Source: Amphiscolops sp. MND2022 (lineage: Eukaryota). Taken from it: a DNA stretch of 64,000 bases. Positions 24,105-64,000 of the stretch are shown one piece after another (positions within the stretch are counted from its first letter, which is position 1; every line of letters starts with the position of its first letter). The position numbers and the translations under genes were made by a program. Under the pieces are notes generated by a model that worked only from the letters and a program-made list of their open reading frames with translations, ran no database searches and had not been told where the DNA came from. The stretch is taken from the NCBI GenBank assembly GCA_964187785.1, contig OZ076409.1, positions 16,184,001 to 16,248,000 of the forward strand, in the 5' to 3' direction.

Positions 24105-24106
24105 CC

Positions 24107-30770: not shown

Positions 30771-31423
30771 GCACCATTGGAAAGAGCGTCCAAGAAAACC
30801 TCCATGCTGAAGTTTTTGCTGCCATCAATTGAATTTTCATTGAGTTATGTCATTTTTACATTTTTCACAAAATGTGGTTCAACTTCGGTGACAGTTTTGC
30901 AAAATGTGTGAAATTGAAAAGATAGCAGAAAACGGACAACGCCATTAGAAAGAGCGTCCAAAAAACCCCCATGCTGAAATTTTCGCCGCCATCACTTGAT
31001 TTTTCATTGAGTTATGTCATTTTTACATTTTTCACAAAATGTGGTTTAACTTCGGTGACAGTTTTGCAGAAGGGGTCAAAATGAACAGATAGCAACAAAC
31101 GGACAACGGCATTGGAAAGAGGGCCCAAAATTACCCCTAAAACGTGTTTTTTACACTCCTGAGTCGACTTTTGATAATACATGAAATTTCATTTTTAAGC
31201 ATACTAATTTATGCTTTTCAGCATACATTTTCGTAATAGAGTCAAAAGTTTGCTTTTTTACAGATTTTCTAAAATTTTTTAGTTTCATTAGATGTCAAAA
31301 ACCTAAAACGTTGTCTTTTTATGAGAATTTCCCCTCAAAACAAGTTGCTGGCTGGTAATGGTAAGTCCGTACTGCAGATAGGAGTCTCGCGCTCAAAAAA
31401 TTGACTCTTTGCTTTTAGCCGAA
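30771..31423 (+). repeat. Orphan diverged copy of the 5S/SL spacer, ending 6 nt into the SL sequence
   Basis: Colinear with the array spacer (168-bp subrepeats, GAGGGCCCAAAATTACCCC, CTGGTAATGGTAAGTCCGTAC, TTGACTCTTTGCTTTTAGCC); stops at GCCGAA. Confidence 0.9.
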
Positions 31424-37000: not shown

Positions 37001-40000
37001 AGTCTAAAAATCCCTATGTTGAAAATTTCGCCGCTTCCAAAGTAAGCATTCCAATTCAAATTTTAGACGAATTCAGAAAGCTATATTCGGTATGAGTCGA
37101 ATTAAACAACCACGTTGGATGTGAGCAATAAATCTCCATCAGTTCAAGAGCGGAACAAATACATCCCCTGGGACCGAACCCAAAAGATACCAGAACAACG
37201 TTATACCAAATCTAACCACCAACGCAACCTCTAGGCCACAATATCTTGCAAGACAGTGGTTTTAGACGCACCACTAAGGGAAAAGAAGAATCCAGTGCTG
37301 TTGAAAAACTGTGCACGCTGACAAAGTTTTTAAAAAATTATGATTGAGGGAATCGAACTCAAGACATTGGAATGGAAATCGAACACGCAACCACTACGCC
37401 ATTGACTGTTGAAAAGACGTGAAAAAAGTAACAACGTTATTGGAAAGAGTCCAAAAATCTCTATGTTGAAAATTTTGCCGCTTCCAAAGTAAGGATTTCA
37501 ATTCAAATTTTGGACGAATTCAGATTGCTATATTCGGTATGTGTCAAATTGAACAATCACGTTGGATGCAAGCAAAAAAACTCTATTAATTCAAGTGCGG
37601 AACAACTTCCATCCCCGGGGACCCAACCCAAAGGTACCAGAACAACGCTATGCCAAACCACCAACGCAACCTCTAGGCTACGATATCTTGCGAACCAGTG
37701 GTTTTGGGCGCACCACTAAGGGAAAAGAATAATCCAGTGCTTTCGAAAGACTGTGCACGCTGACAGTTTTTTAAAAAAAATAATGATTGAGGGAATCGAA
37801 CTCAAGACATTGGAATGGATGAAATCTAACACGCAACCACTACGCCATTGACTGTTGAAAAGACGTGAAAAAAGTAACAACGTTATTGGAAAGAGTCCAA
37901 AAATCTCTATGTTGAAAATTTTGCCGCTTCCAAAGTAAGCATTTCTATTCAAATTTTGGACGAATTCAGAATGCTATATTCGTTATGTGTCGAATTGAAC
38001 AACCATGTTGGGTGTAAGCAATAAAACTCTATCAATTCAAGTGCTGAACAAATTTCCCGGGGACCAAACCCAAAGATGCCCGAACAACGCTATACCAAAC
38101 CTAACCACCAACGCAACCTCTAGGCCACGATTTCTTGCGAAACAATGGTTTTAGGCGCACCACTAAAGTAAAAGAATATTCCAGTGCTTTTGAAAAACTG
38201 TACACGCTGACTAAGTTTTTAATAAATTTTTTATTTAGGGAATTGAACTCAAGACATTGTAATGGAAATCTAACACGCAACCACTACGCCATTGACTGTT
38301 GAAAAGATGTTAAAAAATGGACGACGTTATTGGAAAGAGTCCAAATATCCCTTTGTTGGAAATTTTGCTGTTCCAAAATAAGCATTCCAATTCAAATATT
38401 GGACAAGTTCAGAATGCTATAATCGGTATGTGTCGAATTAAACAACCAAGTTGGGTGCAATACCACTCTATCAATTAAAATGTTGAACAAATTCCATCCC
38501 CGGGGACCGAACCCAAAGATACCAGAACAACGCTATACCAAACCTAATCACCAACGCAACCTCTAGGCCACGATATCTTGCGAAACAGTGGTTTTAGGCG
38601 CACCACTAAGAGAAAAGAATAATCCTGTGCTTTTGAAAGACTGTGCACGCTGACAGTTTTTTTAAGCAAATAATAATCGAGGGAATCGAACTCAAGACAT
38701 TGGAATGGAGGAAATCTAACACGCAACCACTACGCCATTGACTGTTGCAAAGAAGTGAAAAAACGGAAAACGTTATTGGAAAGAGTCCAAAAATCCCTAT
38801 GTTGAAAATTTTGCCGCTTCCAAAGTAAGCATTCCAATTCAAATTTTGGACGAATTCAGTATGCTATATTCGGTATGTGTCAAATTAAACAACCTAGTTG
38901 GGTGTAAGCAATAACTCTTTAACAATTCAAGTGCGGAACAAATTTCATCCCCGGGGACCGAACCCAAAGTTATCAGAACAACGCTATACCAATCCTAACC
39001 ACCAACGCAACCTCTAGGCCACAATATCTTGCAAGACAGTGGTTTTAGACGCACCACTAAGGGAAAAGAAGAATCCAGTGCTGTTGAAAAACTGTGCACG
39101 CTGACAAAGTTTTTGAAAAAATTATGATTGAGGGAATCGAACTCAAGACATTGGAATGGAAATCTAACACGCAACCACTACGCCATTGACTGTTGAAAAG
39201 ATGTGAAAAAATGGACAACGTTATTGGAAAGAGTCCAAAAATCCCTATGTTGAAACTTTTGCCGCTTCCAAAGTAAGCATTCCAATTCAAATATTGGACG
39301 AATTCAGAACGCTAAATTCCGTATGTGTCGAATTGAACAACCAAACTGGTTGTAAACAATAACACTCTATCAATTCAAGTGCTGAACAAATTCCCCGGGG
39401 ACCGACCCCAAAGATACCAGTACAACGCTATACAAAACCTAACCACCAACGCAACCTCTAGGCCACGATATCTTGCGAAACAGTGGTTTTAGACGCACCA
39501 CTAATTGAAAAGAAGAATCCAGTGCTGTTGAAAAACTGTGCACGCTGACAAAGGTTTTAAAAAAATTATGATTGAGGGAATCGAACTCAAGACATTGGAA
39601 TGGAAATCTAACACGCAACCACTACGCCATTGACTGTTGAAAAGATGTGAAAAAATGGACAACGTTATTGGAAAGAGTCCAAAAATCCCTATGTTGAAAA
39701 TTTTGCCGCATCCAAAGTAAGCATTCCATTTCAAATGTTGGACGAATTCAGAATGCTATTTTCGGTATGTGTCGAATTAAATAACCACGTTGGGTGTAAG
39801 CAATAAAAATCTATCAGTTCAAGTGCGGAACAAATCCATCCCCGGGGACCGAACCCAAAGATACCAGAACAACGCTATACCAAACCTAACCACCAACGCA
39901 ACCTCTAGGCCACGATATCTTGCGAAACAGTAGTTTTAGGCGCACCACTAAGAAAAAAGAATAATCCAGTGCTTTTGAAAGACTGTGCACGCTGACGAAG

Positions 40001-43000
40001 TTTTTTTGAAAAAAAATTTTGATTGAGGGAATCGATGTCAAGACATTGGAATGGAAATCTAACACGCAACCACTACGCCATTGACTGTTGAAAAGACGTG
40101 AAAAAAGTAACAACGTTATTCGAAAGAGTCCAAAAATATCTATGTTGAAAATTTTGCCGCTTCCAAAGTAAGCATTTCAATTCAAATTTTGGACGAATTC
40201 AGATTGCTATATTCGGTATGTGTCAAATTAAACAATCACGTTGGATGCAAGCAAAAAAACTCTATTAATTCAAGTGCGGAACAACTTCCATCCCCGGGGA
40301 CCCAACCCAAAGCCCAAAGGTACCAGAACAACGCTATGCCAAACCACCAACGCAACCTCTAGGCTACGATATCTTGCGAACCAGTGGTTTTGGGCGCACC
40401 ACTAAGGGAAGAGAATAATCCTGTGCTTTTGAAAGACTGTGCACGCTGACAGTTTTTTTTGAACAAATAATGATCGAGGGAATCGAACTCAAGACATTGG
40501 AATGGAGGAAATCTAACACGCAACCACTACGCCATTGACTGTTGCAAAGAAGTGAAAAAATGGACAACGTTATTGGAAAGAGTCCAAAAATCCATATGTT
40601 GAAAATTTTGCCGCTTCCAAAGTAAGCATTCCAATTCAAATTTTGGACGAATTCAGTATGCTATATTCGGTATGTGTCAAATTAAACAACCTAGTTGGGT
40701 GTAAGCAATAACTTTTTAACAATTCAAGTGCGGAACAAATTTCATCCCCGGGGACCGAACCCAAAGATATCAGAACAACGCTATACCAATCCTAACCACC
40801 AACGCAACCTCTAGGCCACAATATCTTGCAAGACAGTGGTTTTAGACGCACCACTAAGGGAAAAGAAGAATCCAGTGCTGTTGAAAAACTGTGCACGCTG
40901 ACAAAGTTTTTAAAAAAATTATGATTGAGGGAATCGAACTCAAGACATTGGAATGGAAATCTAACACGCAACCACTACGCCATTGACTATTGAAAAGATG
41001 TGAAAAAATGGACAACGTTATTGGAAAGAGTCCAAAAATCCCTATGTTGAAACTTTTGCCGCTTCCAAAGTAAGCATTCCAATTCAAATATTGGACGAAT
41101 TCAGAACGCTAAATTCCGTATGTGTCGAATTGAACAACCAAATTGGTTGTAAACAATAACACTCTATCAATTCAAGTGCTGAACAAATTCCCCGGGGACC
41201 GAACCCAAAGATACCAGTACAACGCTATACCAAACCTAACCACCAACGCAACCTCTAGGCCACGATATCTTGCGAAACAGTGGTTTTAGACGCACCACTA
41301 ATTGAAAAGAAGAATCCAGTGCTGTTGAAAAACTGTGCACGCTGACAAAGTTTTTAAAAAAAATTATGATTGAGGGAATCGAACTCAAGCCATTGGAATG
41401 GAAATCTAACACGCAACCACTACGCCATTGACTGTTGAAAAAATGTGAAAAAAAGGACAACGTTATTGGAAAAAGTCCAAAAATCCCTATGTTGAAAATT
41501 TTGCCGCATCCAAAGTAAGCATTCCAATTCAAATGTTGGACGAATTCAGAAGGCTATTTTCGGTATGTGTCGAATTGAACAACCAAATTGGTTGTAAACA
41601 ATAACACTCTATCAATTCAAGTGCTGAACAAATTCCCCGGGGACCGAACCCAAAGATACCAGAACAACGCTATACCAAACCTAACCACCAGCGCAACCTC
41701 TAGACCACAATTTCTTGCGAAACAATTGTTTTAGGGGCACCACTAAGGAAAAAGAATATTCCAGTGCTTTTGAAAAACTGTCCACGCCGACAGTTTTTTT
41801 GAAAAAATATTGATTGAGGGAATCGAACTCAAGACATTGGAATGGAGGAAATGTAACACGCAACCACTACGCCATTGAATGTTGAAAAGATGTTAAAAAA
41901 AGGACAACTTTATTGGAAAGAGTCCAAAAATCCCTATGTTGGAATTTTTGCCGCTTCCAAAGTAAGCATTCCACTTCAAATATTGGACGAGTTCAGAACG
42001 CTATATTCGGTATGTGTCGAATTAAACAAATTCCATCCCCGGGGACCGAACCCAAAGATACCAGAACAACGCTATACCAAACCTAACCACCAACGCAACC
42101 TCTACGCCACGATATCTTGCAAAACAGTGATTTTAGGCGCACCACTAGGGGAAAAGAAAAATCCTGTGCTTTTGAAAGACTGTCCACGCTGACTAAGTTA
42201 TTTAAAAAACTTTGATTGAGGGAATCGAACTCAAGACATTGGAATGGAAATCTAACACGCAACCACTACGCCATTGAACGTTGAAAAGATGTTAAAAAAT
42301 GGACAACGTTATTGGAAAGAGTCCAAAAATCCCTATGTTGAAAGATTTGCCGCTTCCAAAGTAAGCATTACAATTCAAAGTTTGGACGAATTCAGAATGC
42401 TATATTCGGTATGTGTCAAATTAAACAACCAAGTTGGGTGCAATAACACTCTATCATTACAAGTGCTGAACAATATCCATCCCCGGGGACCGAACCCAAA
42501 GATACCAGAACAACGCTATACGAAACCTAACCACCAACGCAACCTCTACGACACGATATCTTTCGCAACAATGGTTTTAGGCGCACCACTAAGGGAAAAG
42601 AATATTCCAGTGCTTTTGAAAAACTATCCACGCTGACTTAGTTTTTTAAAAATTTTTGATTGAGGGAATCGAACTTAAGACATTGTAATGGAAATCTAAC
42701 ACGCAACCACTACGCCATTGACTGTTGAAAAGATGTTAAAAATTGGACAACGTTATTGGAAAGAGTCCAAAAATCCCTATGTTGAAAATTTTGCCGCTTC
42801 CAAAGTAAGCATTCCAATTCAAATATTGGACGAGTTCAGAATGCTATATTCGGTATGTGTCGAATTAAACAACCAAGTTGGGTGCAACACCACTCAATCA
42901 ATTAAAATGTTGAACAAATTCCATCTCCGGGGACCGAACCCAAAGATACCAGAACAACGCTATACCAAACCTAACCACCAACGCAACCTCTACGCCACGA

Positions 43001-43743
43001 TTACTTGCGTAACAGTGGTTTTAGGCGCACCACTAAGGGAAAAGATTATTCCAGTGCTTTTGAAAGACTGTCCACGCTGACTAAGTTATTTAAAAAAGTC
43101 TGATTGAGGGAATCGAACTCAAGACATTGGAATGGAAATCTAACACGCAACCACTACGCCATTGAATGTTGAAAAGATGTTAAAAATGGACCACGTTATT
43201 AGAAAGAGTCCAAAAATCCCTATGTTGAAAGATTTGCCGCCCTCCAAGGTAAGCATTTCAAATCAAAAATTGGACGAATTCAGAATGCTATGTTCGGTAT
43301 GTGTCAAATTAAACAACCAAGTTGGGTGCAATAACACTCTATCAATTCAAGTGCTGAACAAATTCCATCCCCGGGGACCGAACCCAAAGATACCAGAACA
43401 ACGCTATACCAAATCTAACCACCAACGCAACCTCTACGCCACGATATCTTGCGAAACAGTGGTTTTAGGCGCACCACTAAGGGAAAGATTATTCCAGTGC
43501 TTTTGAAAGACTGTCCCTGTTGACTAAGATATTAGAAAATTTTTGATTGAGGGAGTCCAACTCAAGACATTGGAATAGAAATCTAACACGCAACCACTTG
43601 GCCATTGATTGTTGAAAAGATGTGTAAAAATGGACAACGTTATTGGAAAGAGTCCAAAAATCCCTGTGTTGAAAGATTTGCCGCTTCCAAAGTAAGCATT
43701 CAAATTCAAATTTTAGACGAAATCAGAATGCTTTATTCGGTAT
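34085..43743. repeat. Tandem satellite, ~445-bp monomer, ~21-22 copies
   Basis: Recurring track ORFs at 444-448 bp spacing (42274, 42718, 43162; ends 38842, 39290, 39734). Confidence 0.97.
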
Positions 43744-44022
43744 AGTGTTTTTTCACACTCCTGAGTCGACTTTTGATAATACATGAAATTTCATATTTAA
43801 GCATACTAATTTATGCTTTTCAGCAAACATTTCCGTTATAGAGTCAAAATTTTGCTTTTTTTTTACAGATTTTCTAAAATAATTTGGTTTCATCGGATGT
43901 CAAAAACATGAAACTTTGTCTTTTTCTGGAAATTTCCCGCCAAAACAAGTTGTTGGCTGGTAATGGTAAGTCAGTACCGCAGATAGGGATCTCGCGCTCC
44001 AAAAATTGACTCTTTGCTTTTA

Positions 44023-45439: not shown

Positions 45440-46237
45440 TTTTTGTCAGAAATGTGGTTTAACTTCGGTGACAGTTTTGCAAAAGGGATCAAATTGAAAA
45501 GATAGCAAAAAACGGACAACGCCATTAGAAAGAGCGTCCAAAAAAACCCCCATGCTGAAATTTTCGCCGCCATCACTTGAATTTTCATTGAGTTATGTCA
45601 TTTTTACTATTTTCACAAAATGTGGTTTAACTTCGGTGACAGTTTTGAAAAAGGGGTCAAAATGAACAGATAGAAAAAAACGGACAACGGCATTGGAAAG
45701 AGGGCCCAAAATTACCCCTAAAACGTGTTTTTCACACTCCTGAGTCGACTTTTGATAATACATGGAATTTCATTTTTAAGCTTACTAATTTATGCTTTTC
45801 AGCATACATTTTCGTAATAGAGTCAAAATTTTGCTTTCTCACAATTTTTCTGGAATATTTTTGTTTCATCAGATGTCAATAACTTGAAACGTCGTCTTTT
45901 CATGAGAATTTCTCCTCAAAACAAGTTGTTGGCTGGTAATGGTAAGTCCGTACCGCAGATAGGACTCTCGCGCTCCAAAAATTGACTCTTTGCTTTTAGC
46001 CTAATTGTTGTGATATCCACGAGGCGTTACTCTGCCAAAATTGGAAATCTCTCATTTCTGAGTTAAATTAACTCAGCGAAACTGTCTTAAATTGTTTCTC
46101 TTCTTCAAACAACGTACCATTCTTACAAGCAATTTTATTGTACTGTATTAGAAAAACTACTGTTTTTCGAAACGTTACTTTAACTTTCTGGGCATTTTGC
46201 TCCTCATTGCCGACAAGGCAAACAATAATCCAACCTC

Positions 46238-48397
46238 ATGGATGAAACACCAACTCACGACAGTCAAAAGCCTTCGAAAACCTTGGATAATTCTCCACGA
46301 AATATTCGAAAAAACCAAGGTCAAAATTTCTTAGAAAATTCATTGGTTACAACAGGAGAAATTTCAAATACTTCGCCCAAATGTAGCAAAAAATTCTCGC
46401 CTTACAAATCACCGGCAGGCCATCCTAAAGAGGCGTCAATCTACACTTCGGATGGCAAATTTCAAGGCAGGGCTCCCCCTCAAAGCCCGAAAGACTCAAA
46501 GCGTAAAAACGCAAAAAACTTTACATCAAAAATTATCAACTCTCAGGAAACTATAAATGCCACAAACTTACCAAATTATCAACAACAACAGCCACAGTTA
46601 CCATTTACAACTCATCGATTGCCTCAAGACCCTAGCAAAAGAGTCAAAATGGTGGATTTCAACGAAGAAAATTTTACATGCAATTCTGGCCCAGAAATTA
46701 CGATAACGTATTCCGGCAACACACTGCAAAATAATATTACACCCACTTACACCAATGCAAAGCCAGCTCATCCTTCTACAACTGGCAACTCAAACTACAA
46801 CCCAAGGGAGGACTCTGGGCCAAATATCGCTCCAAACAACCCACCCAATGTGGAGAACGACCACAAAAACAAGAAAAATCCACTTCAAGAAAGTCAGGTA
46901 GAAAGCTATATTCCTACAACCCAAAACAACAAAAACTCTGAAGCTATTACTGTTGCGACCCAAATGCAACGTACTACGCTTCTCAATTTGCTAAATACAG
47001 GCCGATACGTTTCTCCTGAAGAACGTAGACGTATCCACAATGCTATTGAGGCAATAGCTAACGAAAGTTCCAGTAATGCCTTTAGTGAAATCTTTCCTGA
47101 ACTCTCTGCCCAGAATCAGCAAAAACAAACAAATGCTGATGACAGCAGTCATGCTACAAAACAACCAGCTTCCAACTACAATTCAAGAGCACTAGAACAA
47201 GCAATCGCTGCCACAATTAACGCCATAAACCCACCAGCTGAGGAACTATACACACAAACAATCAGAAATAGCGGATCCCCAAATGAATCAAAGAACAGCC
47301 ACCCACAATCCTACTCTCAGGCAACCTTTTCAAGGTCTCCTACCACGCAAGTGGTAAGCAAAATCCACAAGCTAAGAATAGTGCCTCCCTTGAGAAAAGA
47401 ACATTTCTCCAATAACAACACGTTGGAAGCCGAAATTACAAGAGCATACAAAGATATCCTAACAGCCTTCTCGCCAAATATACGAAATTTGATAACGATA
47501 TCACGAACCAACGTCAAAGTGGCAAACAAAACATACCAAGTCCTCCAGGTAATTGCTCCAGAAAGCGCTGAGCCAGACATTACCAGAATGAAACTGAATG
47601 GTCTAACGATCATGGGCAGAACTGTCTTTCCGACATCTGAGGACTTCTGGCAGGTCCGGAATTCATTCTACCCAAAAACACCGACCATACGAATCAGCAA
47701 TGTCCCAGTGCTATGCGATGACGATGCTCTAATTGAAGCTCTACAATTCCCATCATTCCTTGAATTTGGTCTAAAAGAAAGGGAAACAAAACAGACAGAA
47801 ATTGGCCCAGTTCATACTGGGAAAACTGCTATACAAATAAAGATAAACTCTGAAGATGAAGAAGCCGAGATGCGATCCTGGTCCTTTCATAAAGCCTACA
47901 CTTGCCCAGCAGAATGGCTAGGAGTCGAAATTCCAGCCAGCATACCGAAACTCCACATATGCAAGAAATGCAAAGAAGAAAAGATATCTCAATTCCGAGG
48001 CCACGAAGAGGAATGGTGCAGAATACGCAGAACCCCTCTCACTCCTCCAGTATCCGAAATCACAGAAGGGGCATCCACTAGCGTCATGCCTGAAGAAAGA
48101 AACAAAGCACAACTTCAATCAGTAGAAGCCCCAGGAGCCGAAAACATTCGGTCCGAAGATAGGCAGATCGACAGCGACAACCCAGATGAAGACGACTCTT
48201 CAGATAATCAAGATGACAACTGGCAAACAGTACAGAAGAAAGGACAGAAGAGAACCAAAAAGCAACCCTCAGAAGCTTCCAAAAACTCTCGAAACAGCAG
48301 CCCTGTGAAAGAACCCACCGCAAAGCAAGCAGCTCTACAACCAATCTGTATCAACAACAAACCCAACCCTCAAAAAACGGTAAATAATGATACTTAA
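46238..48397 (+). CDS. ORF1 protein (low-complexity N-terminus, RRM-like region, CCHC knuckle), 719 aa
   Basis: YPKTPTIRISNVP...HTGKTAIQI...CKKC-x10-H-x4-C; DNWQTVQKK basic tail as in L1/Tx1 ORF1. Confidence 0.9.
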   Translation: MDETPTHDSQKPSKTLDNSPRNIRKNQGQNFLENSLVTTGEISNTSPKCSKKFSPYKSPAGHPKEASIYTSDGKFQGRAPPQSPKDSKRKNAKNFTSKIINSQETINATNLPNYQQQQPQLPFTTHRLPQDPSKRVKMVDFNEENFTCNSGPEITITYSGNTLQNNITPTYTNAKPAHPSTTGNSNYNPREDSGPNIAPNNPPNVENDHKNKKNPLQESQVESYIPTTQNNKNSEAITVATQMQRTTLLNLLNTGRYVSPEERRRIHNAIEAIANESSSNAFSEIFPELSAQNQQKQTNADDSSHATKQPASNYNSRALEQAIAATINAINPPAEELYTQTIRNSGSPNESKNSHPQSYSQATFSRSPTTQVVSKIHKLRIVPPLRKEHFSNNNTLEAEITRAYKDILTAFSPNIRNLITISRTNVKVANKTYQVLQVIAPESAEPDITRMKLNGLTIMGRTVFPTSEDFWQVRNSFYPKTPTIRISNVPVLCDDDALIEALQFPSFLEFGLKERETKQTEIGPVHTGKTAIQIKINSEDEEAEMRSWSFHKAYTCPAEWLGVEIPASIPKLHICKKCKEEKISQFRGHEEEWCRIRRTPLTPPVSEITEGASTSVMPEERNKAQLQSVEAPGAENIRSEDRQIDSDNPDEDDSSDNQDDNWQTVQKKGQKRTKKQPSEASKNSRNSSPVKEPTAKQAALQPICINNKPNPQKTVNNDT

Positions 48398-51300
48398 TCT
48401 TGTTAATCTTGTATGTGTGAACATCAGAGGCCTTGCTAACCCAGCAAAGCTTCTCGAAATCTGTGAAAAAAGTAAAACCTTAGATAAAAACCAACAGTCA
48501 TGTATTTTCATACAAGAAACAAAATTAACCAAAATGAAGGAGGAACATATACGAATCTTAGAAAAATATAAACTAAAGAGTAAAGAGGTTCCTGCTACAG
48601 GAAACTCAGGGGGGCTTCTAACACTCATTCCAAAAAACATTGATCATCAAATACTCATGAAAAGCCTTAGCTGCCTTGCAGTGAAAATAATTAGAAATAA
48701 TTGTGAAATGGTCCTCGTTAACACATATATCAACCCCAAAGATTTCAAAGCTAGAAATTTCTGTGCGTCTATTCAGGAGCCAAACCTAAACCCATCCCAA
48801 AACATCCTCGTAGCAGGGGATTTGAATGCAATAGATGCTGAAGACATAGGAAAAACTAAAGAACTTTGCTACCCTATTAAAAACAACGATATCAGAGTAA
48901 TTCGTCATAAAATAATACAGTCTCATTCGAACTCTTTACTGTTAAAGGACATGGCAAAGGAACAAAATGAAATTTTACCGACACATTTCGATCGTAGAAC
49001 AAAAAAATTCAGCAGAATTGACTATGTCTTCAGCAACTATACGAATCAGAATCAGAAAATCGAAATTGTCAATTTCACGTCATCGGATCATAAGTGCCTC
49101 TTTTTAAAAAACCAGGAAGAAAACACCAATAATTCTCCCTCCTACTGGAAACTAAATGACTCTGTGCTGGACGATAGTAATCGCATTAATGAAATCCTGA
49201 AAACCTCAATTTCAAAGCTTCAGAACAAAAGCATGCTAACTGAAACATACGATGAATTTAAAGCAAGTATTAGAGATGACCTTCGGCAATTATGCATTGA
49301 AAAAAGAAATGCTGAAAACATTGTTGAAAAACAACTCAAAAATAACCTAAGACAACTTGAACTTAAACTTTCAGAGAGTGCAAATTCAATGGAATTAATT
49401 GCAAAAATCCAACAAGAAGTTGATCGAAAAAATGACGAGTTGGGCGTACTACTGGACAAACGCAACCAACAAGAACTGAAAAAAATAAAAAATTTCTTTA
49501 ACGAAGCCTTTGAAGGCAATCCTAAACATGTTAAACAATTAGTATCAGCCCTCCGTCTGAGCACAAGAATTTCAAAATTGGAAAAAGACAGCGGTGAAAA
49601 AATTCAATCTCAAAATGATATAGTTGCGGAACTAACCTCATTCTATAAAAAACTTTATCAGTACAATGCTCCTGGAAATCGAAGCACAACTGGGTCCTCC
49701 ATACAACAGAAGAAATACCTCGAGAAATACTTGAAAAGAATTGAGAATAGGCTTGCTACCTATGATAGGACGAATATAAATGAAGATGAAATCTTAGAAT
49801 ACGAAGTTGAAAAAGCAATTCTAAAACTGAATAAAAACAGTGCCCCAGGACCGGATGGTCTCACCGCTGGCCTTTTCCAAAATCAAATAAAATTCTTTGT
49901 GCCTTTGCTTACAGACCTATTTAATGAAATTTTAACTAAAAACCGGCCTCCTCCTTCATTTACTCTTGCAATAATCAAACTACTCCCGGAAAAATCTAAC
50001 ACAATAAAAAAAGCCTCTGATCTTAGGCCAATAAGTCTAATAAACACAGACCAAAAAATACTATCACACGTGCTAGCTAATCGAATCAAACCACTTTTTG
50101 ACACAATAATAGGACAACATCAATATGCTCATCTTACAGAACGAAATATCCACACTGCAATAACGAAAATTAGACAATATTCAACGTGCCTGAAGAAAAA
50201 CGACAGCTTATGCGCTCTAGATTTTACAAAAGCATTTGACTGCGTCAACAGGGACTTCCTAATTGCCATATTGAAACAACTACCAATATCAGAAACAACT
50301 ATAAAACTAATCGAGCAAGTATATAAAAACACAACATCCATCATTGACATCAACTCTGAATTCTCCGAACCAATAATTATTACAAAAGGGGTAAGACAAG
50401 GATGCCCCCTCTCTGCATTGCTCTTCATCCTAGTTATAGAACCTCTACTTGAAAAAATACAACGATCAAAAAAATTAAAAACACCAAATCATCAAAAAAT
50501 CATTGCCTTTGCAGATGATATAACAGTGTCCATCAAAAACAACTCAATAAACAATTTAATTAAAATCCTTGACGAGTTTGAAAATGTCTCTGGTCTCGCT
50601 ATTAATTACGAAAAGTCAGAGCTTCTAACCAAAAATCAAAAAATTTTATTCACAAACCCAGAAAAAAACTGAAAATTGTCAATCGAGTCAAAATCCTTGG
50701 AGTGTTCATAACAACAAAATCAAGTATAGACAGTGAAACAAAAAACAAGATCGACACAATTGTTAACCAATCAACAAAGTTCACCTCTCAAAACATGAGT
50801 TTCAGAGCCAGAGCTATTAACCTAGAAACATTCATTCTATCCAAAATATTCTACCAATTACGACACTTCGCGAAAAACAAATCATATATGAAAAAATTAA
50901 ACTCCAAAATAGTGGACCAGTTCTGGAATCATAAGAAACACAACGTTAATCAAGAAATTTTACATACCAGTAGACAAGAAAGCGGAATAGGACTAAAGAA
51001 TCTGAACAAAGCCGTAACAATAGCAAAAATCATGAATTTGAAAGTTTCCCTCCAAGGTAAAAACAATCAAAATAATCACAACGATTTCCAAGTTTCAAAC
51101 TGGTACAAGCAAATTGCAAAAGACCTGAAAAACGAAAACATTGAGATAATAGAAGTATCCAATGATACTCTAAAGATACAACACCTCTTTCAACCCATTG
51201 AAATAACCAGAAACACAAAATCGAGCGAAATTCTCTCAATAATACAAAAATCAACAATCAATATTGCATGCATCCCCCGTGTTGCAAAAACGGCCATGAA

Positions 51301-51706
51301 ACAAGGAATAACCATGGACTGTGTCCAGGGGGTTCTGGCAAAACTATGGAACAGAAAAAATCTACGATCATTTGATAAAAATTACATATACTGTTTCATG
51401 ATGAACGCCTACCTAGATAAACAAGAGAATTGGGGAAAAAACCTTGTTCCTCATCCTCTCTGCTTCCAATGCGGAACTCATTTCGAAACATTCAGTCATT
51501 TAATGTTTGACTGTCCACAAACACAGAACTTGAAAACAAAACTCAAATACACAAATTGGGATCAAGTCTGGAACGATAAAACAGGCAAATCACAAAAACT
51601 ACTAGTCGCCTTTATCCTATCGTCATGGTCGGAAGAAGAAGGGTCGTACCTAAAGTTTTTTCGAAACACGTATACTTCCAACTACCAACCACCTCAAGAA
51701 ACCTAA
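48387..51706 (+). CDS. ORF2 protein (AP endonuclease, RT, C-terminal Zn finger) with one frameshift near 50662-50668
   Basis: NIRGL, IQETK, AGDLN, SRIDY, SDH; APGPDG, RPISLIN, DFTKAFD, GVRQGCPLS, FADD; resumes in another frame as VKILGVF; CFQC..ETFSHLMFDC. Confidence 0.93.
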
Positions 51707-51970
51707 ACAGAGCCAACCGACACCCAAGCCGAAACACCCAAAACAACATAAAAAAACAAAAAAAAACTTCAAAAAAAAAACGAAAAAGTAATCCAGTTCA
51801 CACATACATCCTGAAGCATTTATATTATACTTATGTTACTCTCAGATTTTGTTGTACCATTTATTGTACCTTTTGTTACTTTTATTACCTATGTGGTTTT
51901 GTTGTACTTCCATTAGACTAAAGTTTGTAACATTTTTGTTAGCGTAAAGTTTACAATAAAGTCTTCAAAA

Positions 51971-53794: not shown

Positions 53795-55777
53795 CGGCGT
53801 TACTCTGTCAGCCTGCAAACTTTGTTTGCACAGCGCCATCTTGCAAATTTTGCAGCAAAAGTTGCAAAAGTAATGACTAATTTGAACACGAGTGAGCTTG
53901 ATCAACATCATAATGAAAATGTTGAGCAAAATTGTTACAAAAATGCAGTTATTTCCTTGTCGAAATCGAACTCAAATATGGACAAATTACCAATTATTAT
54001 CAACTTTGCCTTACCACTGACATCTGAAATGTTCAAAAACAGCAAATTACTGGATTCAATGTTTGTGGAAGCTGTTATGGCCGTCAAAAACCGACTTAAC
54101 TCCAATGAAATTACCATCTTCAAAACTACAATTTTACGCAACAAAGGCAATTTGAAGTGTATTACTGTGATCATTCCTTAAAAACTTGAAAATGCAGCTT
54201 CCTCTCTTATTCACGAGGGCATTACTCTTCGCAATCGGAAAATACGGCCTTATTCTGTCAATTATTCCAACCCGAACAACAATGTCTATCCAAAAAGATT
54301 ACCAATATCTTTCCGAAACCTACCACACTTTCTGACGGATGAGGATATTTTGAGTAGCTGTGGTCTTCAAAACTTCAAATTTAGTAGCAAAATTTTTCAT
54401 CAACAACGACGACTTCCTGATAGCAGCCTTTTTTATACAGGAGAGGCAAGAATTACAGTTTTAATTGACAATGAGAATGAGGAAAGTTTACTACAAAACT
54501 GGGCCAATAATGCATATGACAAAATGTTTAGTTCCAGTGGCATTTTTTTCAAATGTTGCTGTATCCCACTCCTCGAATGCTCTTTATGCGTCAATGAGAA
54601 CCTTCCCAGTGCTCATCAACAATCAAGATGCCCAAAACAACTATCAGACGAACAGCAAATACAGAAAAACAGTGAATCTCAGAACCAGAAGTTAACAACT
54701 GACTACGTTATGGAAACTGCAGAAACAGAGCCAATGTCTAATGAACCTGAACTGTCAGATTCAGATGATGCTGAACCAATCTCAAAGGCACCAAAGCAGA
54801 CCGATGATGGTACTGAAACCGAATGCAACAACAACGTGGCAGAAACTGAACAACCATGCATTAACAACTCAAAGAAAGATACCATTCCTATGCAAAAACC
54901 TAAACTAATGCATCGCTCAACTGAATGGAAATCCTCAACAGACCTTGCCCGAAATCAAGCAGATGACCAACAGTCAACGGCAAAGCATGGATATCATGAA
55001 TACCCATTCTTTTTGGAAAAGAAACAAAACAAAATACTGGCACCCGAAACTATTTTCAACGAAATACCTCCTATAAAAGAACATGTGATCAAAACCCAAC
55101 AAACTTCTGGCTACATCAATACACTAGACAAGGAAAAGAAAATTCAAAGGACCTTTTCACTCGTACAACCACTGAAGAAAGAAAAACTCGAAGATCTTTT
55201 ATCTGAATCAAACTGGAAACATTCTGACTCTAACACTATTTTAACTTCTCATTTGGAATTTTACTCATTGATCCGGAAGTTTGATCCATTCTATGATGCT
55301 ACAAACCACCAAATTTACACTATTAATCTGGAGAATAAAATTGTACAAGTTTTCACTGCAGTTGAAAACTTATACAATGAAAACAAAAACTAAACTGAAA
55401 AATTTCGGACCTTTTCGACTGGAACTTTAAAGTTCTAAATCTCTACAATACCATCATCAATCAACCCAATTCCCAATTCTTTTCGAGCACTAGTTGTTCG
55501 CAACCTGTATGCAAAAAACGGGTTTTGAAAACAAACTCCTTCCAGGAGCAAACATCTTTTTTCATACATTCTCCAAACTACATTATACTAACTTCATACC
55601 TAAAAAAAAAACATTCCCATTTTGGCGCTTTCTCAAAAATGCCATAACCAAGCATCTTCATCTACATACTTCAGCTTTTTCAACACTTCAGTTACTCATA
55701 TACTCATTTTATACCTATACCTTAGACTTCATTACTTTTTACTTGTAAATTCTCAGTTTTCAATAAATTCTTTAAAA
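53795..55777 (+). mobile_element. Non-autonomous ORF1-only retroelement, family A copy 1
   Basis: Perfect 17-bp TSD 53778-53794 and 55778-55794; no RT or endonuclease; AATAAA..TTTAAAA end. Confidence 0.9.
53873..55393 (+). pseudogene. Family A ORF1-like gene with one premature stop
   Basis: TAA at 54179-54181 where copy 2 has TAC; otherwise colinear with 60578-62098. Confidence 0.88.
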
Positions 55778-56125: not shown

Positions 56126-56701
56126 TTTTTGTCAGAAATGTGGTTTAACTTCGGTGACAGTTTTGCAAAAGGGGTCAAATTGAAAAGATAGCAAAAAACG
56201 GACAACGCCATTAGAAAGAGCGTCCAAAAAAACCCCCATGCTGAAATTTTCGCCGCCCTCACTTGAATTTTCATTGAGTTATGTCATTTTTACTATTTTC
56301 ACAAAATGTGGTTTAACTTCGGTGACAGTTTTGCAAAAGGGGTCAAAATGAACAGATAGCAAAAAACGGACAACGGCATTGGAAAGAGGGCCCAAAATTA
56401 CCCCTAAAACGTGTTTTTCACACTCCTGAGTCGACTTTTGATAATACATGGAATTTCATTTTTAAGCTTACTAATTTATGCTTTTCAGCATACATTTTCG
56501 TAATAGAGTCAAAATTTTGCTTTCTCGCAATTTTTCTGGAATATTTTTGTTTCATCAGATGTCAATAACTTGAAACGTCGTCTTTTCATGAGAATTTCTC
56601 CTCAAAACAAGTTGTTGGCTGGTAATGGTAAGTCCGTACCGCAGATAGGACTCTCGCGCTCCAAAAATTGACTCTTTGCTTTTAGCCTAATTGTTGTGAT
56701 A

Positions 56702-58132
56702 CTGCGGTAGCAGCAATTATTTGACCAAATTCATTCTCTCTCGCATCTGCTGAGGCAGGGACGATTATCTCACTTGAAAGAATGCCTAATTTCCTTACAT
56801 TGGACTTTATAATACCTTACTCCAAAGAAGAAATTACTAATCCTTCTCTAAAGCTTGTTACTTACAAAAGCTTTCTTTGCTCGTTACTTAAATGTTTACC
56901 TAGTGACGCTGTTAAACGCGTGACCTGCATGAAATCGCACGTGTACAAACATGCGCCGCACGAAAAGAAACTTGAGAGCGTCAAAGTTATCGGTCCAATT
57001 TCATTACAAAACGAGTTTAATTCCATTATTTCTGATGGAATTTTGTTCAAAACTCGCAAGATTTATGCTCTACAAAACCATGATGTTACGTCCAATGCTT
57101 ACCCCAAGCAATTTACGATCAAATTTCGTAATTTACCACACTTCTTTTCTGATACCGATGTTATTTCGGCTTGCAATTTGAAAGATTTCAAACTTTCAAA
57201 GTTACGACACCAATTAGAGAAACTTTCTGAGGAAATTGAAACCTACACAGGCATTTGTTATGCGGATGTGGAAATCCAGGACGAAGCCCAATTACAACAG
57301 CTCATTTCATGGAATGAAACCAGCTTTTTGAACAAATACTATCTAGAAGAAATTCCATTTAAATGCCAAATTCAAATATTACTACAATGCGATTTCTGCA
57401 AACAAAAGAAGCTCCAGTTTTTGGGGCACCATGTACGCCAATGCAAAGCCAAAAAGACACAATTAGAACCAGAATCTGAGGAAGATAGCATCTCAACTAC
57501 GAAAACAAATGAAGAAAAAGAACTAGAAGCCACAGATGCAAACAAGAATAACCCAGAACATACTTTCTATATTGATTTAGAAAAATGCCAAATTCGAAAC
57601 ATACATGACATGGACGAACTCCATAAAGGATTTAGCAAGCTTCTTGCTTTACAGGAATGCAAGCCTGTGAATGTCTTGAATGACAACAATATAGTGATAA
57701 ACCAACTACGACATGTGAAGAATATTACTGAAGAAAAACAGCGGAAGCTTTTCAAACAACAAAACATATGGGGAAGTCCTTCATCAGACGTCCCAATCAA
57801 GAACTTCTCAGAGTTTTGTGAACTCCGGGGAAAGCTAGATGTGTTCTACGACTCAACAAAAGGCGAAGAAACCCTTTACCTGATGAACCTATCCAAGAAA
57901 GTGACCCACATTTTCAAAAAGAAACAACAACCAAACTAACAAAACTACATTATACTAATTTTCAAACTTTGATTTCCATGTTAAATCAAAACTCTCATAT
58001 TATACAATCATCACCAAGTCTTTCATTTACTTAATACTATAAGTATGCTAAGTTATTCATACTCAACACTTTAGTATTAATGTAAAGACTATTTGATTTA
58101 TAAAGGCAAATTTCCAAATACATTCTTTAAAA
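56702..58132 (+). mobile_element. Non-autonomous ORF1-only retroelement, family B copy 1
   Basis: TSD 56685-56701 and 58133-58149; single ORF; TTCTTTAAAA end. Confidence 0.9.
56782..57939 (+). CDS. Family B ORF1-like protein, 385 aa
   Basis: YPKQFTIKFRNLPHF, YTGICYADV, CDFC-x9-H-x4-C, plus C-terminal domain shared with family A. Confidence 0.88.
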   Translation: MPNFLTLDFIIPYSKEEITNPSLKLVTYKSFLCSLLKCLPSDAVKRVTCMKSHVYKHAPHEKKLESVKVIGPISLQNEFNSIISDGILFKTRKIYALQNHDVTSNAYPKQFTIKFRNLPHFFSDTDVISACNLKDFKLSKLRHQLEKLSEEIETYTGICYADVEIQDEAQLQQLISWNETSFLNKYYLEEIPFKCQIQILLQCDFCKQKKLQFLGHHVRQCKAKKTQLEPESEEDSISTTKTNEEKELEATDANKNNPEHTFYIDLEKCQIRNIHDMDELHKGFSKLLALQECKPVNVLNDNNIVINQLRHVKNITEEKQRKLFKQQNIWGSPSSDVPIKNFSEFCELRGKLDVFYDSTKGEETLYLMNLSKKVTHIFKKKQQPN

Positions 58133-58149
58133 GCCTAATTGTTGTGATA

Positions 58150-59579
58150 CTGCGGTAGCAGCAATTATTTGACCAAATTATTCTCTCTCGCATCTGCTGA
58201 GGCAGGGACGATTATCTCACTTGAAAGAATGCCTAATTTCCTTACATTGGACTTTATAATACCTTACTCCAAAGAAGAAATTACTAATCCTTCTCTAAAG
58301 CTTGTTACTTACAAAAGCTTTCTTTGCTCGTTACTTAATTGTTTACCTAGTGACGCTGTTAAACGCGTGACCTGCATGAAATCGCACGTGTACAAACATG
58401 CGCCGTACGAAAAGAAACTTGAGAGCGTCAAAGTTATCGGTCCAATTTCATTACAAAACCAGTTTAATTCCATTATTTCTGATGGAATTTTGTTCAAAAA
58501 TCGCAAGATTTATGCTCTACAAAACCATGATGTTACGTCCAATGCTTACCCCAAGCAATTTACGATCAAATTTCGTAATTTACCACACTTCTTTCCTGAT
58601 ACCGATGTTATTTCGGCTTGCAATTTGAAAGATTTCAAACTTTCAAAGTTACGACACCAATTAGAGAAACTTTCTGAGGAAATTGAAACCTACACAGGCA
58701 TTTGTTATGCGGATGTGGAAATCCAGGACGAAGCCCAATTACAACAGCTCATTTCATGGAATGAAACCAGCTTTTTGAACAAATACTATCTAGAAGAAAT
58801 TCCATTTAAATGCCAAATTCAAACATTACTACAATGCGATTTCTGCAGACAAAAGAAGCTCCAGTTTTTGGGGCACCATGTACGCCAATGCAAAGCCAAA
58901 AAGACACAATTAGAACCAGAATCTGAGGAAGATAGCATCTCAACCACGAAAACAAATGAAGAAAAAGAACTAGAAGCCACAGATGCAAACAAGAATAACA
59001 CAGAACATACTTTCTATATTGATTTAGAAAAATGCCAAATTCGAAACATACATGACATGGACGAACTCCATAAAGGATTTAGCAAGCTTCTTGCTTTACA
59101 GGAATGCAAGCCTGTGAATGTCTTGAATGACAACAATGTAGTGATAAACCAACTACGACATGTGAAGAATATTACTGAAGAAAAACAGCGGAAGCTTTTC
59201 AAACAACAAAACAGATGGGGAAGTCCTTCATCAGACGTCCCAATCAAGAACTTCTCAGAGTTTTGTGAACTCCGGGGAAAGCTAGATGTGTTCTACGACT
59301 CAACAAAAGGCGAAGAAACCCTTTACCTGATGAACCTATCCAAGAAAGTGACCCACATTTTCAAAAAGAAACAACAACCAAACTAACAAAACTACATTAT
59401 ACTAATTTTCAAACTTTGATTTCCATGTTAAATCAAAACTCTCATATTATACAATCATCACCAAGTCTTTCATTTACTCAATACTATAAGTATGCTAAGT
59501 TATTCATACTCAACACTTTAGTATTAATGTAAAGACTATTTGATTTATAAAGGCAAATTTCCAAATACATTCTTTAAAA
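58150..59579 (+). mobile_element. Non-autonomous ORF1-only retroelement, family B copy 2 (tandem)
   Basis: TSD 58133-58149 and 59580-59596; near-identical to copy 1. Confidence 0.9.
58229..59386 (+). CDS. Family B ORF1-like protein, 385 aa
   Basis: First ATG at 58229 (track starts at an upstream TTG); 10 aa differences from copy 1. Confidence 0.88.
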   Translation: MPNFLTLDFIIPYSKEEITNPSLKLVTYKSFLCSLLNCLPSDAVKRVTCMKSHVYKHAPYEKKLESVKVIGPISLQNQFNSIISDGILFKNRKIYALQNHDVTSNAYPKQFTIKFRNLPHFFPDTDVISACNLKDFKLSKLRHQLEKLSEEIETYTGICYADVEIQDEAQLQQLISWNETSFLNKYYLEEIPFKCQIQTLLQCDFCRQKKLQFLGHHVRQCKAKKTQLEPESEEDSISTTKTNEEKELEATDANKNNTEHTFYIDLEKCQIRNIHDMDELHKGFSKLLALQECKPVNVLNDNNVVINQLRHVKNITEEKQRKLFKQQNRWGSPSSDVPIKNFSEFCELRGKLDVFYDSTKGEETLYLMNLSKKVTHIFKKKQQPN

Positions 59580-59713
59580 GCCTAATTGTTGTGATAAACT
59601 TATTAAATTGGTAAGTATTCCAACCCTATTGATAAGTTTTATTTGAAAGCAGACTGCGAAAGTGGTCTGCTGCCCAATTTTTGAACAAGGAACAAGCTAG
59701 TCTGCACTAACTT
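59580..59713 (+). ncRNA. Putative SL RNA sequence downstream of insertion
   Basis: Leader ends AAATTG|GTAAGT (variant); hairpins and Sm site intact. Confidence 0.65.
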
Positions 59714-59805
59714 AAAAGTTACGCGTATTTTGACCGAGAAAATTTTCGTATCATTGTACGTAATTTTGTTGTTAAGCATATAAAGCTATTGATTCTACAA
59801 TGATC

Positions 59806-59924
59806 GGCTACGACCATACCATGTTGAATGCACCGGTTCTCGTCCGATCACCGAAGTTAAACAACATAGGGCCTGGTTAGTACTTGGATGGGAGACCGCT
59901 TGGGAACACCAGGTGTTGTAGCCT
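59806..59924 (+). rRNA. 5S rRNA
   Basis: Canonical 5S. Confidence 0.98.
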
Positions 59925-60499
59925 TTTTTGTCAGAAATGTGGTTTAACTTCGGTGACAGTTTTGCAAAAGGGGTCAAATTGAAAAGATAGCAAAAAACGG
60001 ACAACGCCATTAGAAAGAGCGTCCAAAAAAACCCCCATGCTGAAATTTTCGCCGCCATCACTTGAATTTTCATTGAGTTATGTCATTTTTACTATTTTCA
60101 CAAAATGTGGTTTAACTTCGGTGACAGTTTTGCAAAAGGGGTCAAAATGAACAGATAGCAAAAAACGGACAACGGCATTGGAAAGAGGGCCCAAAATTAC
60201 CCCTAAAACGTGTTTTTCACACTCCTGAGTCGACTTTTGATAATACATGGAATTTCATTTTAAGCTTACTAATTTATGCTTTTCAGCATACATTTTCGTA
60301 ATAGAGTCAAAATTTTGCTTTCTCGCAATTTTTCTGGAATATTTTTGTTTCATCAGATGTCAATAACTTGAAACGTCGTCTTTTCATGAGAATTTCTCCT
60401 CAAAACAAGTTGTTGGCTGGTAATGGTAAGTCCGTACCGCAGATAGGACTCTCGCGCTCCAAAAATTGACTCTTTGCTTTTAGCCTAATTGTTGTGATA

Positions 60500-62480
60500 C
60501 GGCGTTACTCTGTCAGCCTGCAAACTTTGTTTGCACAGCGCCATCTTGCAAATTTTGCAGCAAAAGTTGCAAAAGTAATGACTAATTTGAACACGAGTGA
60601 GCTTGATCAACATCATAATGAAAATGTTGAGCAAAATTGTTACAAAAATGCAGTTATTTCCTTGTCGAAATCGAACTCAAATATGGACAAATTACCAATT
60701 ATTATCAACTTTGCCTTACCACTGACATCTGAAATGTTCAAAAACAGCAAATTACTGGATTCAATGTTTGTGGAAGCTGTTATGGCTGTCAAAAACCGAC
60801 TTAACTCCAATGAAATTACCATCTTCAAAACTACAATTTTACGCAACAAAGGCAATTTGAAGTGTATTACTGTGATCATTCCTTACAAACTTGAAAATGC
60901 AGCTTCCTCTCTTATTCACGAGGGCATTACTCTTCGCAATCGGAAAATACGGCCTTATTCTGTCAATTATTCCAACCCGAACAACAATGTCTATCCAAAA
61001 AGATTACCAATATCTTTCCGAAACCTACCACACTTTCTGACGGATGAGGAAATTTTGAGTAGCTGTGGTCTTCAAAACTTCAAATTTAGTAGCAAAATTT
61101 TTCATCAACAACGACGACTTCCTGATAGCAGCCTTTTTTATACAGGAGAGGCAAGAATTACAGTTTTAATTGACAATGAGAATGAGGAAAGTTTACTACA
61201 AAACTGGGCCAATAATGCATATGACAAAATGTTTAGTTCCAGTGGCATTTTTTTCAAATGTTGCTGTATCCCACTCCTCGAATGCTCTTTATGCGTCAAT
61301 GAGAACCTTCCCAGTGCTCATCAACAATCAAGATGCCCAAAACAACTATCAGACGAACAGCAAATACAGAAAAACAGTGAATCTCAGAACCAGAAGTTAA
61401 CAACTGACTACGTTATGGAAACTGCAGAAACAGAGCCAATGTCTAATGAACCTGAACTGTCAGATTCAGATGATGCTGAACCAATCTCAAAGGCGCCAAA
61501 GCAGACCGATGATGGTACTGAAACCGAATGCAATAACAACGTGGCAGAAACTGAACAACCATGCATTAACAACTCAAAGAAAGATACCATTCCTATGCAA
61601 AAACCTAAACTAATGCATCGCTCAACTGAATGGGAATCCTCAACAGACCTTGCCCGAAATCAAGCAGATGACCAACAGTCAACGGCAAAGCATGGATATC
61701 ATGAATACCCATTCTTTTTGGAAAAGAAACAAAACAAAATACTGGCACCCGAAACTATTTTCAACGAAATACCTCCTATAAAAGAACATGTGATCAAAAC
61801 CCAACAAACTTCTGGCTACATCAATACACTAGACAAGGAAAAGAAAATTGAAAGGACCTTTTCACTCGTACAACCACTGAAGAAAGAAAAACTCGAAGAT
61901 CTTTTATCTGAATCAAACTGGAAACATTCTGACTCTAACACTATTTTAACTTCTCATTTTGAATTTTACTCATTGATCCGGAAGTTTGACCCATTCTATG
62001 ATGCTAAAAACCACCAAATTTACACTATTAATCTGGAGAATAAAACTGTACAAGTTTTCACTGCAGTTGAAAACTTATACAATGAAAACGAAAACTAAAC
62101 TGAAAAAATTCGGACCTTTTTGACTGGAACTTTAAAGTTCTAAATCTCTACAATACCATCATCAATCAACCCAATTCCCAATTCTTTTCGAGCACTAGTT
62201 GTTCGCAACCTGTATGCAAAAAACGGGTTTTGAGAACAAACTCCTTCCAGGAGCAAACATCTTTTTTCATACATTCTCCAAACTACATTATACTAACTTC
62301 ATACCAAAAAAAAACATTCCCATTTTGGCGCTTTCTCAAAAATGCCATAACCAAGCATCTTCATCTACATACTTAAGTTTTTTCAACACTTCAGTTACTC
62401 ATATACTCATTTTATACATATACCTTAGACTTCATTACTTTTTACTTGTAAATTCTCAGTTTTCAATAAATTCTTTAAAA
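60500..62480 (+). mobile_element. Non-autonomous ORF1-only retroelement, family A copy 2
   Basis: Perfect TSD 60483-60499 and 62481-62497. Confidence 0.9.
60578..62098 (+). CDS. Family A ORF1-like protein, 506 aa from first ATG
   Basis: YPKRLPISFRNLPHF, YTGEARITV, CSLC-x8-H-x4-C, acidic linker, C-terminal domain; track start GTG lies inside the TSD. Confidence 0.88.
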   Translation: MTNLNTSELDQHHNENVEQNCYKNAVISLSKSNSNMDKLPIIINFALPLTSEMFKNSKLLDSMFVEAVMAVKNRLNSNEITIFKTTILRNKGNLKCITVIIPYKLENAASSLIHEGITLRNRKIRPYSVNYSNPNNNVYPKRLPISFRNLPHFLTDEEILSSCGLQNFKFSSKIFHQQRRLPDSSLFYTGEARITVLIDNENEESLLQNWANNAYDKMFSSSGIFFKCCCIPLLECSLCVNENLPSAHQQSRCPKQLSDEQQIQKNSESQNQKLTTDYVMETAETEPMSNEPELSDSDDAEPISKAPKQTDDGTETECNNNVAETEQPCINNSKKDTIPMQKPKLMHRSTEWESSTDLARNQADDQQSTAKHGYHEYPFFLEKKQNKILAPETIFNEIPPIKEHVIKTQQTSGYINTLDKEKKIERTFSLVQPLKKEKLEDLLSESNWKHSDSNTILTSHFEFYSLIRKFDPFYDAKNHQIYTINLENKTVQVFTAVENLYNENEN

Positions 62481-63401: not shown

Positions 63402-64000
63402 CTGCGTGTGTCAGCAATTATTTGCTAACTCTACTCTCACTGCTGCGGCAGAGAAGACGAAAATTACCTGAACAATGCCTTTATTGACAGCAGAATTCAT
63501 CATTCCTTACACAAAAGAAGAAATTACCAGCCCAAACATAAAGCAAGCTGTTTACAAAGAATTCCTTTGCAAGCTTTTACATGCTTTATCGCCTACTCAT
63601 ATTGACAGCGTGACATGCATTAAATCGTATGTGTCCAAACATGCGCCAGCGCATGAGCATGAAAAGAAGCTTGAATGCATCAAAATTATTGCTCCAAACT
63701 CGATAGAAAACGACTTCAAAAACCTACTTCTTAAAGGAATTCCTTACAAAAACCGGATAATTTATGCATTCCAAAACAGTGATGTTTATTCTAACTCCTA
63801 CCCAAAGCAATTCACTTTGAAATTCCGCAATTTACCACACTTTTTAGAAGATGGAGAGATCGTGGAGGCTTGTAATCTGCAAGAGTACAAAATTTCCAAA
63901 TTACGCCACCAAAGAGTAAGAATTTCTGACGACATCGAAGCCTTTACTGGAATCTGTTATGCTGAAATAGAGATTGCCAATCAATGCCAATTAGAAAACA
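63402..64000 (+). mobile_element. Family C insertion (related to B), truncated by window end
   Basis: Starts right after GCCTAATTGTTGTGATA (63385-63401); 5' end CTGCG..CAGCAATTATTTG resembles family B. Confidence 0.85.
63475..64000 (+). CDS. Family C ORF1-like protein, partial (absent from ORF track)
   Basis: Hand translation MPLLTAEFIIPYTKEEITSP...YPKQFTLKFRNLPHFL...FTGICYAEI, open to window end; colinear with family B. Confidence 0.85.
   Translation, partial: MPLLTAEFIIPYTKEEITSPNIKQAVYKEFLCKLLHALSPTHIDSVTCIKSYVSKHAPAHEHEKKLECIKIIAPNSIENDFKNLLLKGIPYKNRIIYAFQNSDVYSNSYPKQFTLKFRNLPHFLEDGEIVEACNLQEYKISKLRHQRVRISDDIEAFTGICYAEIEIANQCQLEN

Follow-up and report, generated by a model that had tools for sequence, protein, structure and literature searches.

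The stretch analysed here, hereafter the window, comprises 64,000 nucleotides of contig OZ076409.1 of Amphiscolops sp. MND2022 (G000:C1:16184001-16248000 in our notation; genome of 1.07 Gb). From 44 kb to its end it is occupied by a tandem array of spliced-leader (SL) and 5S rRNA genes, which houses the subject of this study, a group of retroelements that encode an ORF1 (first open reading frame) protein with an additional C-terminal domain and no ORF2. Every array unit contains a 5S gene (seven in the window according to Rfam RF00001, one of them at 59806-59924 on the forward strand) and a 32-nt exon (for instance 59579-59610, forward strand) followed by a GTAAG splice donor and an Sm-like site (at 59676). 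In sequence, this exon is the published spliced leader of the acoel Symsagittifera roscoffensis (PMC9911081, in the part available), from which the copy at 59579 differs by one base; a 22-nt piece of the leader has 1948 exact matches in the genome.

A long interspersed nuclear element (LINE), referred to as W1, and five element copies named A (two copies), B (two copies) and C, all on the forward strand, begin directly after nucleotide 18 of the leader. The duplicated target corresponds to the first 18 nt of the leader (59579, and also 45998, 51970, 53777, 55777, 56684, 58132, 60482, 62480 and 63384), and this 18-bp duplication flanks every copy of which both ends lie in the window. W1 (46016-51969) belongs to the L1 group, and its ORF2, which carries a frameshift near 50610-50670, follows an ORF1 located at 46238-48397. 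Pfam recovers an APE endonuclease, a reverse transcriptase (RT) and a C-terminal zinc finger in this LINE (APE and zinc finger below the curated cut-offs), and the best Protein Data Bank match of its ORF2 is L1 ORF2p (E = 7.6e-127). A, B and C are ORF1-only elements, each composed of a tandem RNA-recognition motif (RRM) core, a knuckle, a linker and the C-terminal domain, without any ORF2 between the target duplications. The intact copy of A (60500-62479; ORF 60578-62098) displays its knuckle at 61283, a linker of about 100 unstructured residues and a domain of about 119 amino acids at 61706-62062; the other copy (53795-55776, domain at 55001-55357) is interrupted by an in-frame stop at 54179-54181. 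B copy 1 (56702-58131; ORF 56782-57939) lies between leader duplications at 56684-56701 and 58132-58149, with the domain at 57562-57915, and B copy 2 (58150-59578; ORF 58229-59386) shows the core, a knuckle at 58835, a short acidic linker and a domain of about 118 amino acids at 59009-59362. Element C is present by its start only (63402-64000), its domain and 3' tail lying past the window end.

The first-pass annotation, made from the letters of the window alone, had proposed that A and B share a C-terminal domain lacking from the ORF1 of the neighbouring LINE. Both protein ends that it quoted are present in the window, and the likeness between them is real: the last 120 amino acids align with a score of 84, against a shuffle mean of 31.0 and a maximum of 59 (0 of 2000 shuffles as high). 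The ORF1 tail of W1 matches neither (116 and 374 of 500 shuffles as high), whereas the N-terminal cores of A and B do align to this ORF1 (0 of 500 shuffles as high, each). The hydrophobic share amounts to 13% in the last 110 residues of the W1 ORF1, 33-35% in A, B and C, and 9-25% in the tails of autonomous ORF1s. The limits of the domain needed redrawing: it starts about 40 residues earlier than proposed (at TFYID in B, 57562 and 59009, and at YPFFL in A, 55001 and 61706), for a total length of about 120 amino acids. Similarly, the tryptophan of the proposed W..EF..L motif is kept in only 6 of 14 rows; the sole invariant feature is the N-L pair near the end, present in all 12 rows that cover it. 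Element C, for which the question had been raised, also possesses the domain, just past the window (G000:C1:16248372-16248614; 40% identity, E = 1.6e-12). In a 15-row alignment, conservation concerns hydrophobic positions, N52, Q65, K/R96 and the N-L pair; none of its acidic, His or Cys positions is invariant, and the net charge varies from -7 to +7, so that an enzyme or a basic nucleic-acid binder is disfavoured.

The domain is predicted to fold independently. AlphaFold modelled that of B with a predicted local distance difference test score (pLDDT) of 84.7 and a predicted template modelling score (pTM) of 0.78 from seven sequences. In the model of A (31-row alignment), the domain forms blocks of pLDDT 87-97 (residues 341-460) after a 99-residue stretch below 50, and the overall pTM of 0.46 fits two unlinked modules. 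The two models agree in all 12 secondary-structure elements and in their order; the folds were run separately, on alignments that share rows. For the core of A, Foldseek retrieved proteins with tandem RRMs (E ~1e-5, with 119 matches at E <= 0.001), and for the domain none of the libraries searched gave an assignment. Among 1.84 billion representatives, 12 matched the domain at E <= 0.001, 11 of which are proteins or fragments of ORF1-only families, while P0012, encoded on a contig of 900 nt, is likely a chimera, since its start is unrelated and is followed by a domain like that of family J; the ten database matches looked up are all unnamed. The N-terminal half may bear some resemblance to the RNase H1 hybrid-binding or Cauli_VI domain.

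Further families, D to K, came out of genome searches along with a few broken relatives, so that the carriers of the domain number about a dozen ORF1-only families; as these searches score the best candidates only, further families may exist. The possibility that D carries just one half of it was dismissed, since the remainder comes after an in-frame stop. We then compared representatives, one per family or copy type, namely 21 ORF1s with an ORF2 and 12 ORF1-only proteins (10 from this genome and two database proteins). None of the 21 ORF2-bearing proteins displays the domain (best score 5.8 bits on the domain profile), which is thus no routine part of autonomous ORF1s, whereas seven full-length ORF1-only rows (drawn from six families of this genome and from the database) score high and truncated rows partially. 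Across a census of 259 overlapping and redundant loci, 79 cores have an endonuclease after them, and in 2 of these the domain lies in between, both derived from one deletion junction; among 245 domain ends, the first feature to follow is a leader duplication in 201, an ORF2 in 2 (again that junction) and neither of them in 42. A candidate autonomous element with the domain (C12:~55,999,650) was discarded, because a deletion has joined an F copy to a 432-type LINE there. Very probably, then, the domain is a real module confined to the ORF1-only lineage.

Phylogenetically, all 12 ORF1-only rows group on a single branch (97/96), which joins (100/100) four autonomous rows designated clade X, the members of which begin and end in sequence matching U5 small nuclear RNA (snRNA) genes that Rfam finds alongside. 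This distribution bears out the suggestion of the first-pass annotation that the module was gained by the non-autonomous lineage, and the gain was likely a single one that occurred as this lineage lost ORF2. A and B were rejected as derivatives of the LINE next to them, since their ORF1 is nearest to the U5-targeting clade X. Neither do they look like internal-deletion derivatives of their own helpers: the ORF1 groups with clade X, and the tails with SL-targeting LINEs. Clade X elements were observed in U5 snRNA sequence at L219, L166, L216 and L167, in tandem at some loci; at L216:3157-5832 the ORF1 tail continues in frame into ORF2 (an 892-aa frame), unlike at L166, which may reflect either a natural fusion or an indel.

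Indeed, the 3' ends point to other LINEs than the ORF1. The last 42 nt of C are identical to the tail of W1 (42/42), the family of which is likely the helper of C. The last 40 nt of the intact A copy are 87.5% identical (35/40) to the 3' end of the SL-targeting LINEs 725 and 749; the tails of A, H and J match this family at 85-92% over about 40 nt, D over 16 nt, and B through the common terminal motif of about 15 nt only. The ORF1 cores of these tail-matched helpers are about 18-30% identical to those of A and B. The leader's first bases also open those copies that lie off the arrays, namely those of H on C6 and C10 and of the autonomous LINEs 813 (C8) and 432 (C7), an indication that transcription begins at the SL start. 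In an RT tree that held no named Tx1 reference, the helpers stand apart from vertebrate L1-like rows (99). Two short motifs were also noted in the 3' untranslated regions, a hairpin-like one in A, C, H and J (window 55536 and 62241) and one of 16 nt in ORF1-only families including B (55577, 57944, 59391 and 62282). Neither was found in the ten autonomous elements compared, and both are possible private RNA signals.

Related LINEs extend to other small-RNA genes. Beside a U1 snRNA gene lie tandem autonomous LINEs of the same group, and the junction contains sequence from the 5' end of U1 (L215:2739-7427, G000:C3:~17.10-17.12 Mb); two related LINEs begin no more than about 100 nt from a tRNA gene in the opposite orientation (L210:1747-1819 and L212:1341-1413). 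One LINE radiation therefore covers at least four small-RNA targets: SL, U5, U1 and tRNA-adjacent sites.

Selection was assessed from the ratio of non-synonymous to synonymous substitution rates (dN/dS). Between families, this ratio is low in the domain (B/G 0.29, I/K 0.33, C/E 0.25; three further pairs are saturated), for reference values of 0.24 in the B/C core and 0.91 in the linker (28 codons). Within families, the domain ratios are 0.37 for B (7 copies) and 0.65 for C (14 copies), from counts that are small here and also in A (see below). Long-term constraint is therefore clear and recent constraint is not.

The domain, its distribution, the insertion site common to its carriers and the helper-like 3' tails are observed; from them we infer a function. 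The domain would be an adaptor through which the RNA particle of an ORF1-only element exploits the ORF2 protein of helpers unrelated to it, in line with ORF2 recruitment as one of the three roles offered by the first-pass annotation, and it would have been gained once, together with the loss of ORF2. We give this reading a probability of about 0.42. The element RNA would be transcribed from the SL promoter and coated in cis by its own ORF1p through the tandem RRMs and knuckle; the ORF2p of a helper would then recognize the borrowed tail of about 40 nt, and the helper endonuclease would cut the SL exon. In the last and least certain step, contact with the ORF2p or particle of the helper would be made by the tethered domain, since the ORF1p of the element is only about 18-30% identical to that of the helper. 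For RNA polymerase II transcripts, ORF1p is described as required for mobilization (PMC2666806, as far as available), and in Dictyostelium an ORF2-less element is strongly aided by ORF1p in cis, whereas a foreign ORF1p of 25% identity fails (PMC3159450, same proviso). The retention of ORF1 is explained in this way, since polymerase II transcripts need ORF1p and ORF1p works best in cis. The adaptor role is favoured because a foreign ORF1p is paired with these helpers, and because the domain is the sole addition common to all ORF1-only elements.

Several points nevertheless weigh against the adaptor. The co-occurrence of the domain with the loss of ORF2 is a single evolutionary event, which cannot separate this role from others; the adaptor step is drawn from that one coincidence. 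A co-fold of the A domain with residues 250-1093 of the 725-family ORF2 scored 0.00, which is evidence neither way as no alignments were used and the partner fold is uncertain. For many SINEs (short interspersed nuclear elements), a shared 3' tail suffices alone. The domain profile was built from ORF1-only families, which makes their high scores partly circular; the tree is midpoint-rooted, and its rows P0002 and P0005 were labelled ORF1-only without genomic context. At short evolutionary distances, domain dN/dS reaches 1.40 and 1.01 in two close pairs (0.47 in another), and the domain variants of 26 A copies look near neutral: 21 of them are non-synonymous and 5 synonymous, a ratio of 1.07, where the core gives 0.49. 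Finally, the best-kept copy of D has a stop in the middle of the domain, yet is full-length and flanked by duplications. The neutral-looking A variants and close pairs may, however, represent changes that followed insertion.

Two other roles can be envisaged, each considerably less probable than the adaptor. The domain might be a self-association module that builds or stabilizes the ribonucleoprotein particle of the element itself: its conservation is mainly hydrophobic, the B and C proteins start right at the RRM core where autonomous ORF1s have 40-450 residues ahead of it, and such ORF1 proteins have been suggested to act by multimerizing (PMC5786205, available portion). However, the monomer is already modelled with confidence, and short autonomous ORF1s (396-447 aa) do without the domain. 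Alternatively, and with similarly modest odds, it might bind a host factor, either to counter small-RNA or chromatin silencing, as the first-pass annotation had suggested, or to rescue the SL-promoter transcript from snRNA-type processing for export and translation. The rapid divergence of the domain on a kept fold (13-71% identity to B) would suit such a role, as would the off-array copies that begin at leader base 1, the RNA of which likely starts like SL RNA; but the autonomous LINEs that share the site, and with it the promoter and the silencing, cope without the domain.

The remaining explanations appear less plausible still. Targeting to the SL gene, another role considered by the first-pass annotation, has a precedent in the Dictyostelium TRE5-A ORF1p, which acts via TFIIIB (PMC3159450, available text), and the nearest autonomous relatives reside in U5, indicating that the lineage changed target. 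It is unlikely because at least eight autonomous families reach the same SL-exon site without the domain; moreover, target choice is described as mainly set by the endonuclease (PMC4494074, in the accessible part), and H copies with an intact domain are found outside the arrays. Hardly more convincing is the idea that the domain is baggage, be it an ORF2 remnant or a captured host domain. Internal deletion is the usual origin given for ORF1-only elements (PMC5786205), and the stop in D and the variants of A fit weak constraint. Against this stand the purifying selection between families and the profile-profile probabilities of 0.1% both with ORF2 and with autonomous ORF1 alignments, as well as scores of at most 3.8 bits on 120 ORF2 proteins, a comparison at sequence level only; five genome searches for a donor gene, each with a single domain as query, yielded no convincing non-element match, three hits at E 0.5-0.7 being left unexamined. 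The least probable of all is that the protein interferes with helper LINEs and thereby limits damage to the array. The excess of ORF1-only over autonomous inserts (27 to 8 among 44 units in 131 kb of array) would agree with this, but block duplication of the array inflates these counts and simple parasitism predicts the same excess.

Across the genome, SL/5S arrays on G000:C1, C12, C13, C938 and C917 host at least eight autonomous and about 12 ORF1-only families competing for one leader site, with stacked insertions (B-B, D-B and C-725). At L170 (G000:C610:90001-100000), four short units retain only the last ~50 codons and the tail of C, fused into the spacer and tandemly amplified. Upstream of the array, the window contains a satellite of about 447 bp in some 21 copies (34091-43748, just ahead of the array) and 167-bp repeats resembling those of the array spacer (30774-31130). 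It also holds an open frame of 515 aa with the character of a long coiled coil, which is likely a host exon (3048-4595, forward strand), as well as two broken elements that, from their gag-, RT-, RNase H- and integrase-like frames, may be of long terminal repeat retrotransposon type: one on the reverse strand (5903-10360) and one on the forward strand (14422-29323), the latter with further ORFs downstream that are possibly env-like.

Non-autonomous LINEs with one ORF1-type protein, no RT and a dependence on helpers are already known, namely HAL1, HeT-A and Ag-Sponge (PMC5753468, PMC5786205, in the portions available). A, B and C resemble them in encoding an ORF1 homologue without ORF2, in their target duplications and defined ends, and in tails shared with autonomous LINEs. 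They differ in having a tandem RRM-knuckle ORF1 of L1-group lineage, with an extra domain absent from the sampled helpers, and in that the clade closest to this ORF1 has a different target from that of the tail-matched LINEs. The HAL1 ORF1p is of the mammalian L1 type (coiled coil, one RRM and a C-terminal domain); here no L1 ORF1 match was obtained in Pfam and the model has tandem RRMs. TRE5-A.2 of Dictyostelium is a site-specific ORF1-only element mobilized in trans, helped in cis by its own ORF1p and dependent on its 3' end (PMC3159450). It arose from its own helper by deletion, and no added domain is mentioned in the accessible text, whereas A, B and C are part of a lineage that has diversified into about a dozen families and that has a foreign ORF1 and such a domain.

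As for the helpers, Tx1-clade LINEs are APE-type and insert in multicopy small-RNA genes, such as Keno at U2, with U5- and 5S-targeting families (PMC4494074). The present helpers are likewise APE-type L1-group elements that target a multicopy gene, the SL exon, in a genome that also has U5, U1 and tRNA-adjacent elements; the literature passages available mention no APE-type family at the SL exon. Insertion in spliced-leader exons is known from NeSL of nematodes, which has a restriction-like endonuclease (PMC4640811, as available). It is known, too, from CRE/SLACS of trypanosomes, whose endonuclease is of the same restriction-like type; our helpers have an APE domain instead. We found no published description of this lineage or domain in the literature covered, Repbase, subscription journals and supplements falling outside it. 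The ORF1-only class itself is not new; the present system adds a compact domain for which the searches gave no name, as well as APE-type LINEs at the SL exon.

A stronger version of the adaptor proposal, to which we attach a rather low probability, would make these elements satellite retroposons with a dedicated hijacking protein, in which an ORF1p from a U5-targeting LINE, equipped with a domain of new fold, captures the ORF2p of several unrelated SL-targeting LINEs. If true, this would be a LINE counterpart of the hijacking factors of phage satellites and would offer a handle on how cis preference is broken. Although limited to one host lineage and a putative function, the system bears on why some non-autonomous LINEs keep ORF1 and how they obtain the ORF2p of a helper, and it provides a clean setting in which to test this: about a dozen families, helpers identified by their tails, a single insertion site, and a small domain that can be deleted and is missing from every helper sampled.

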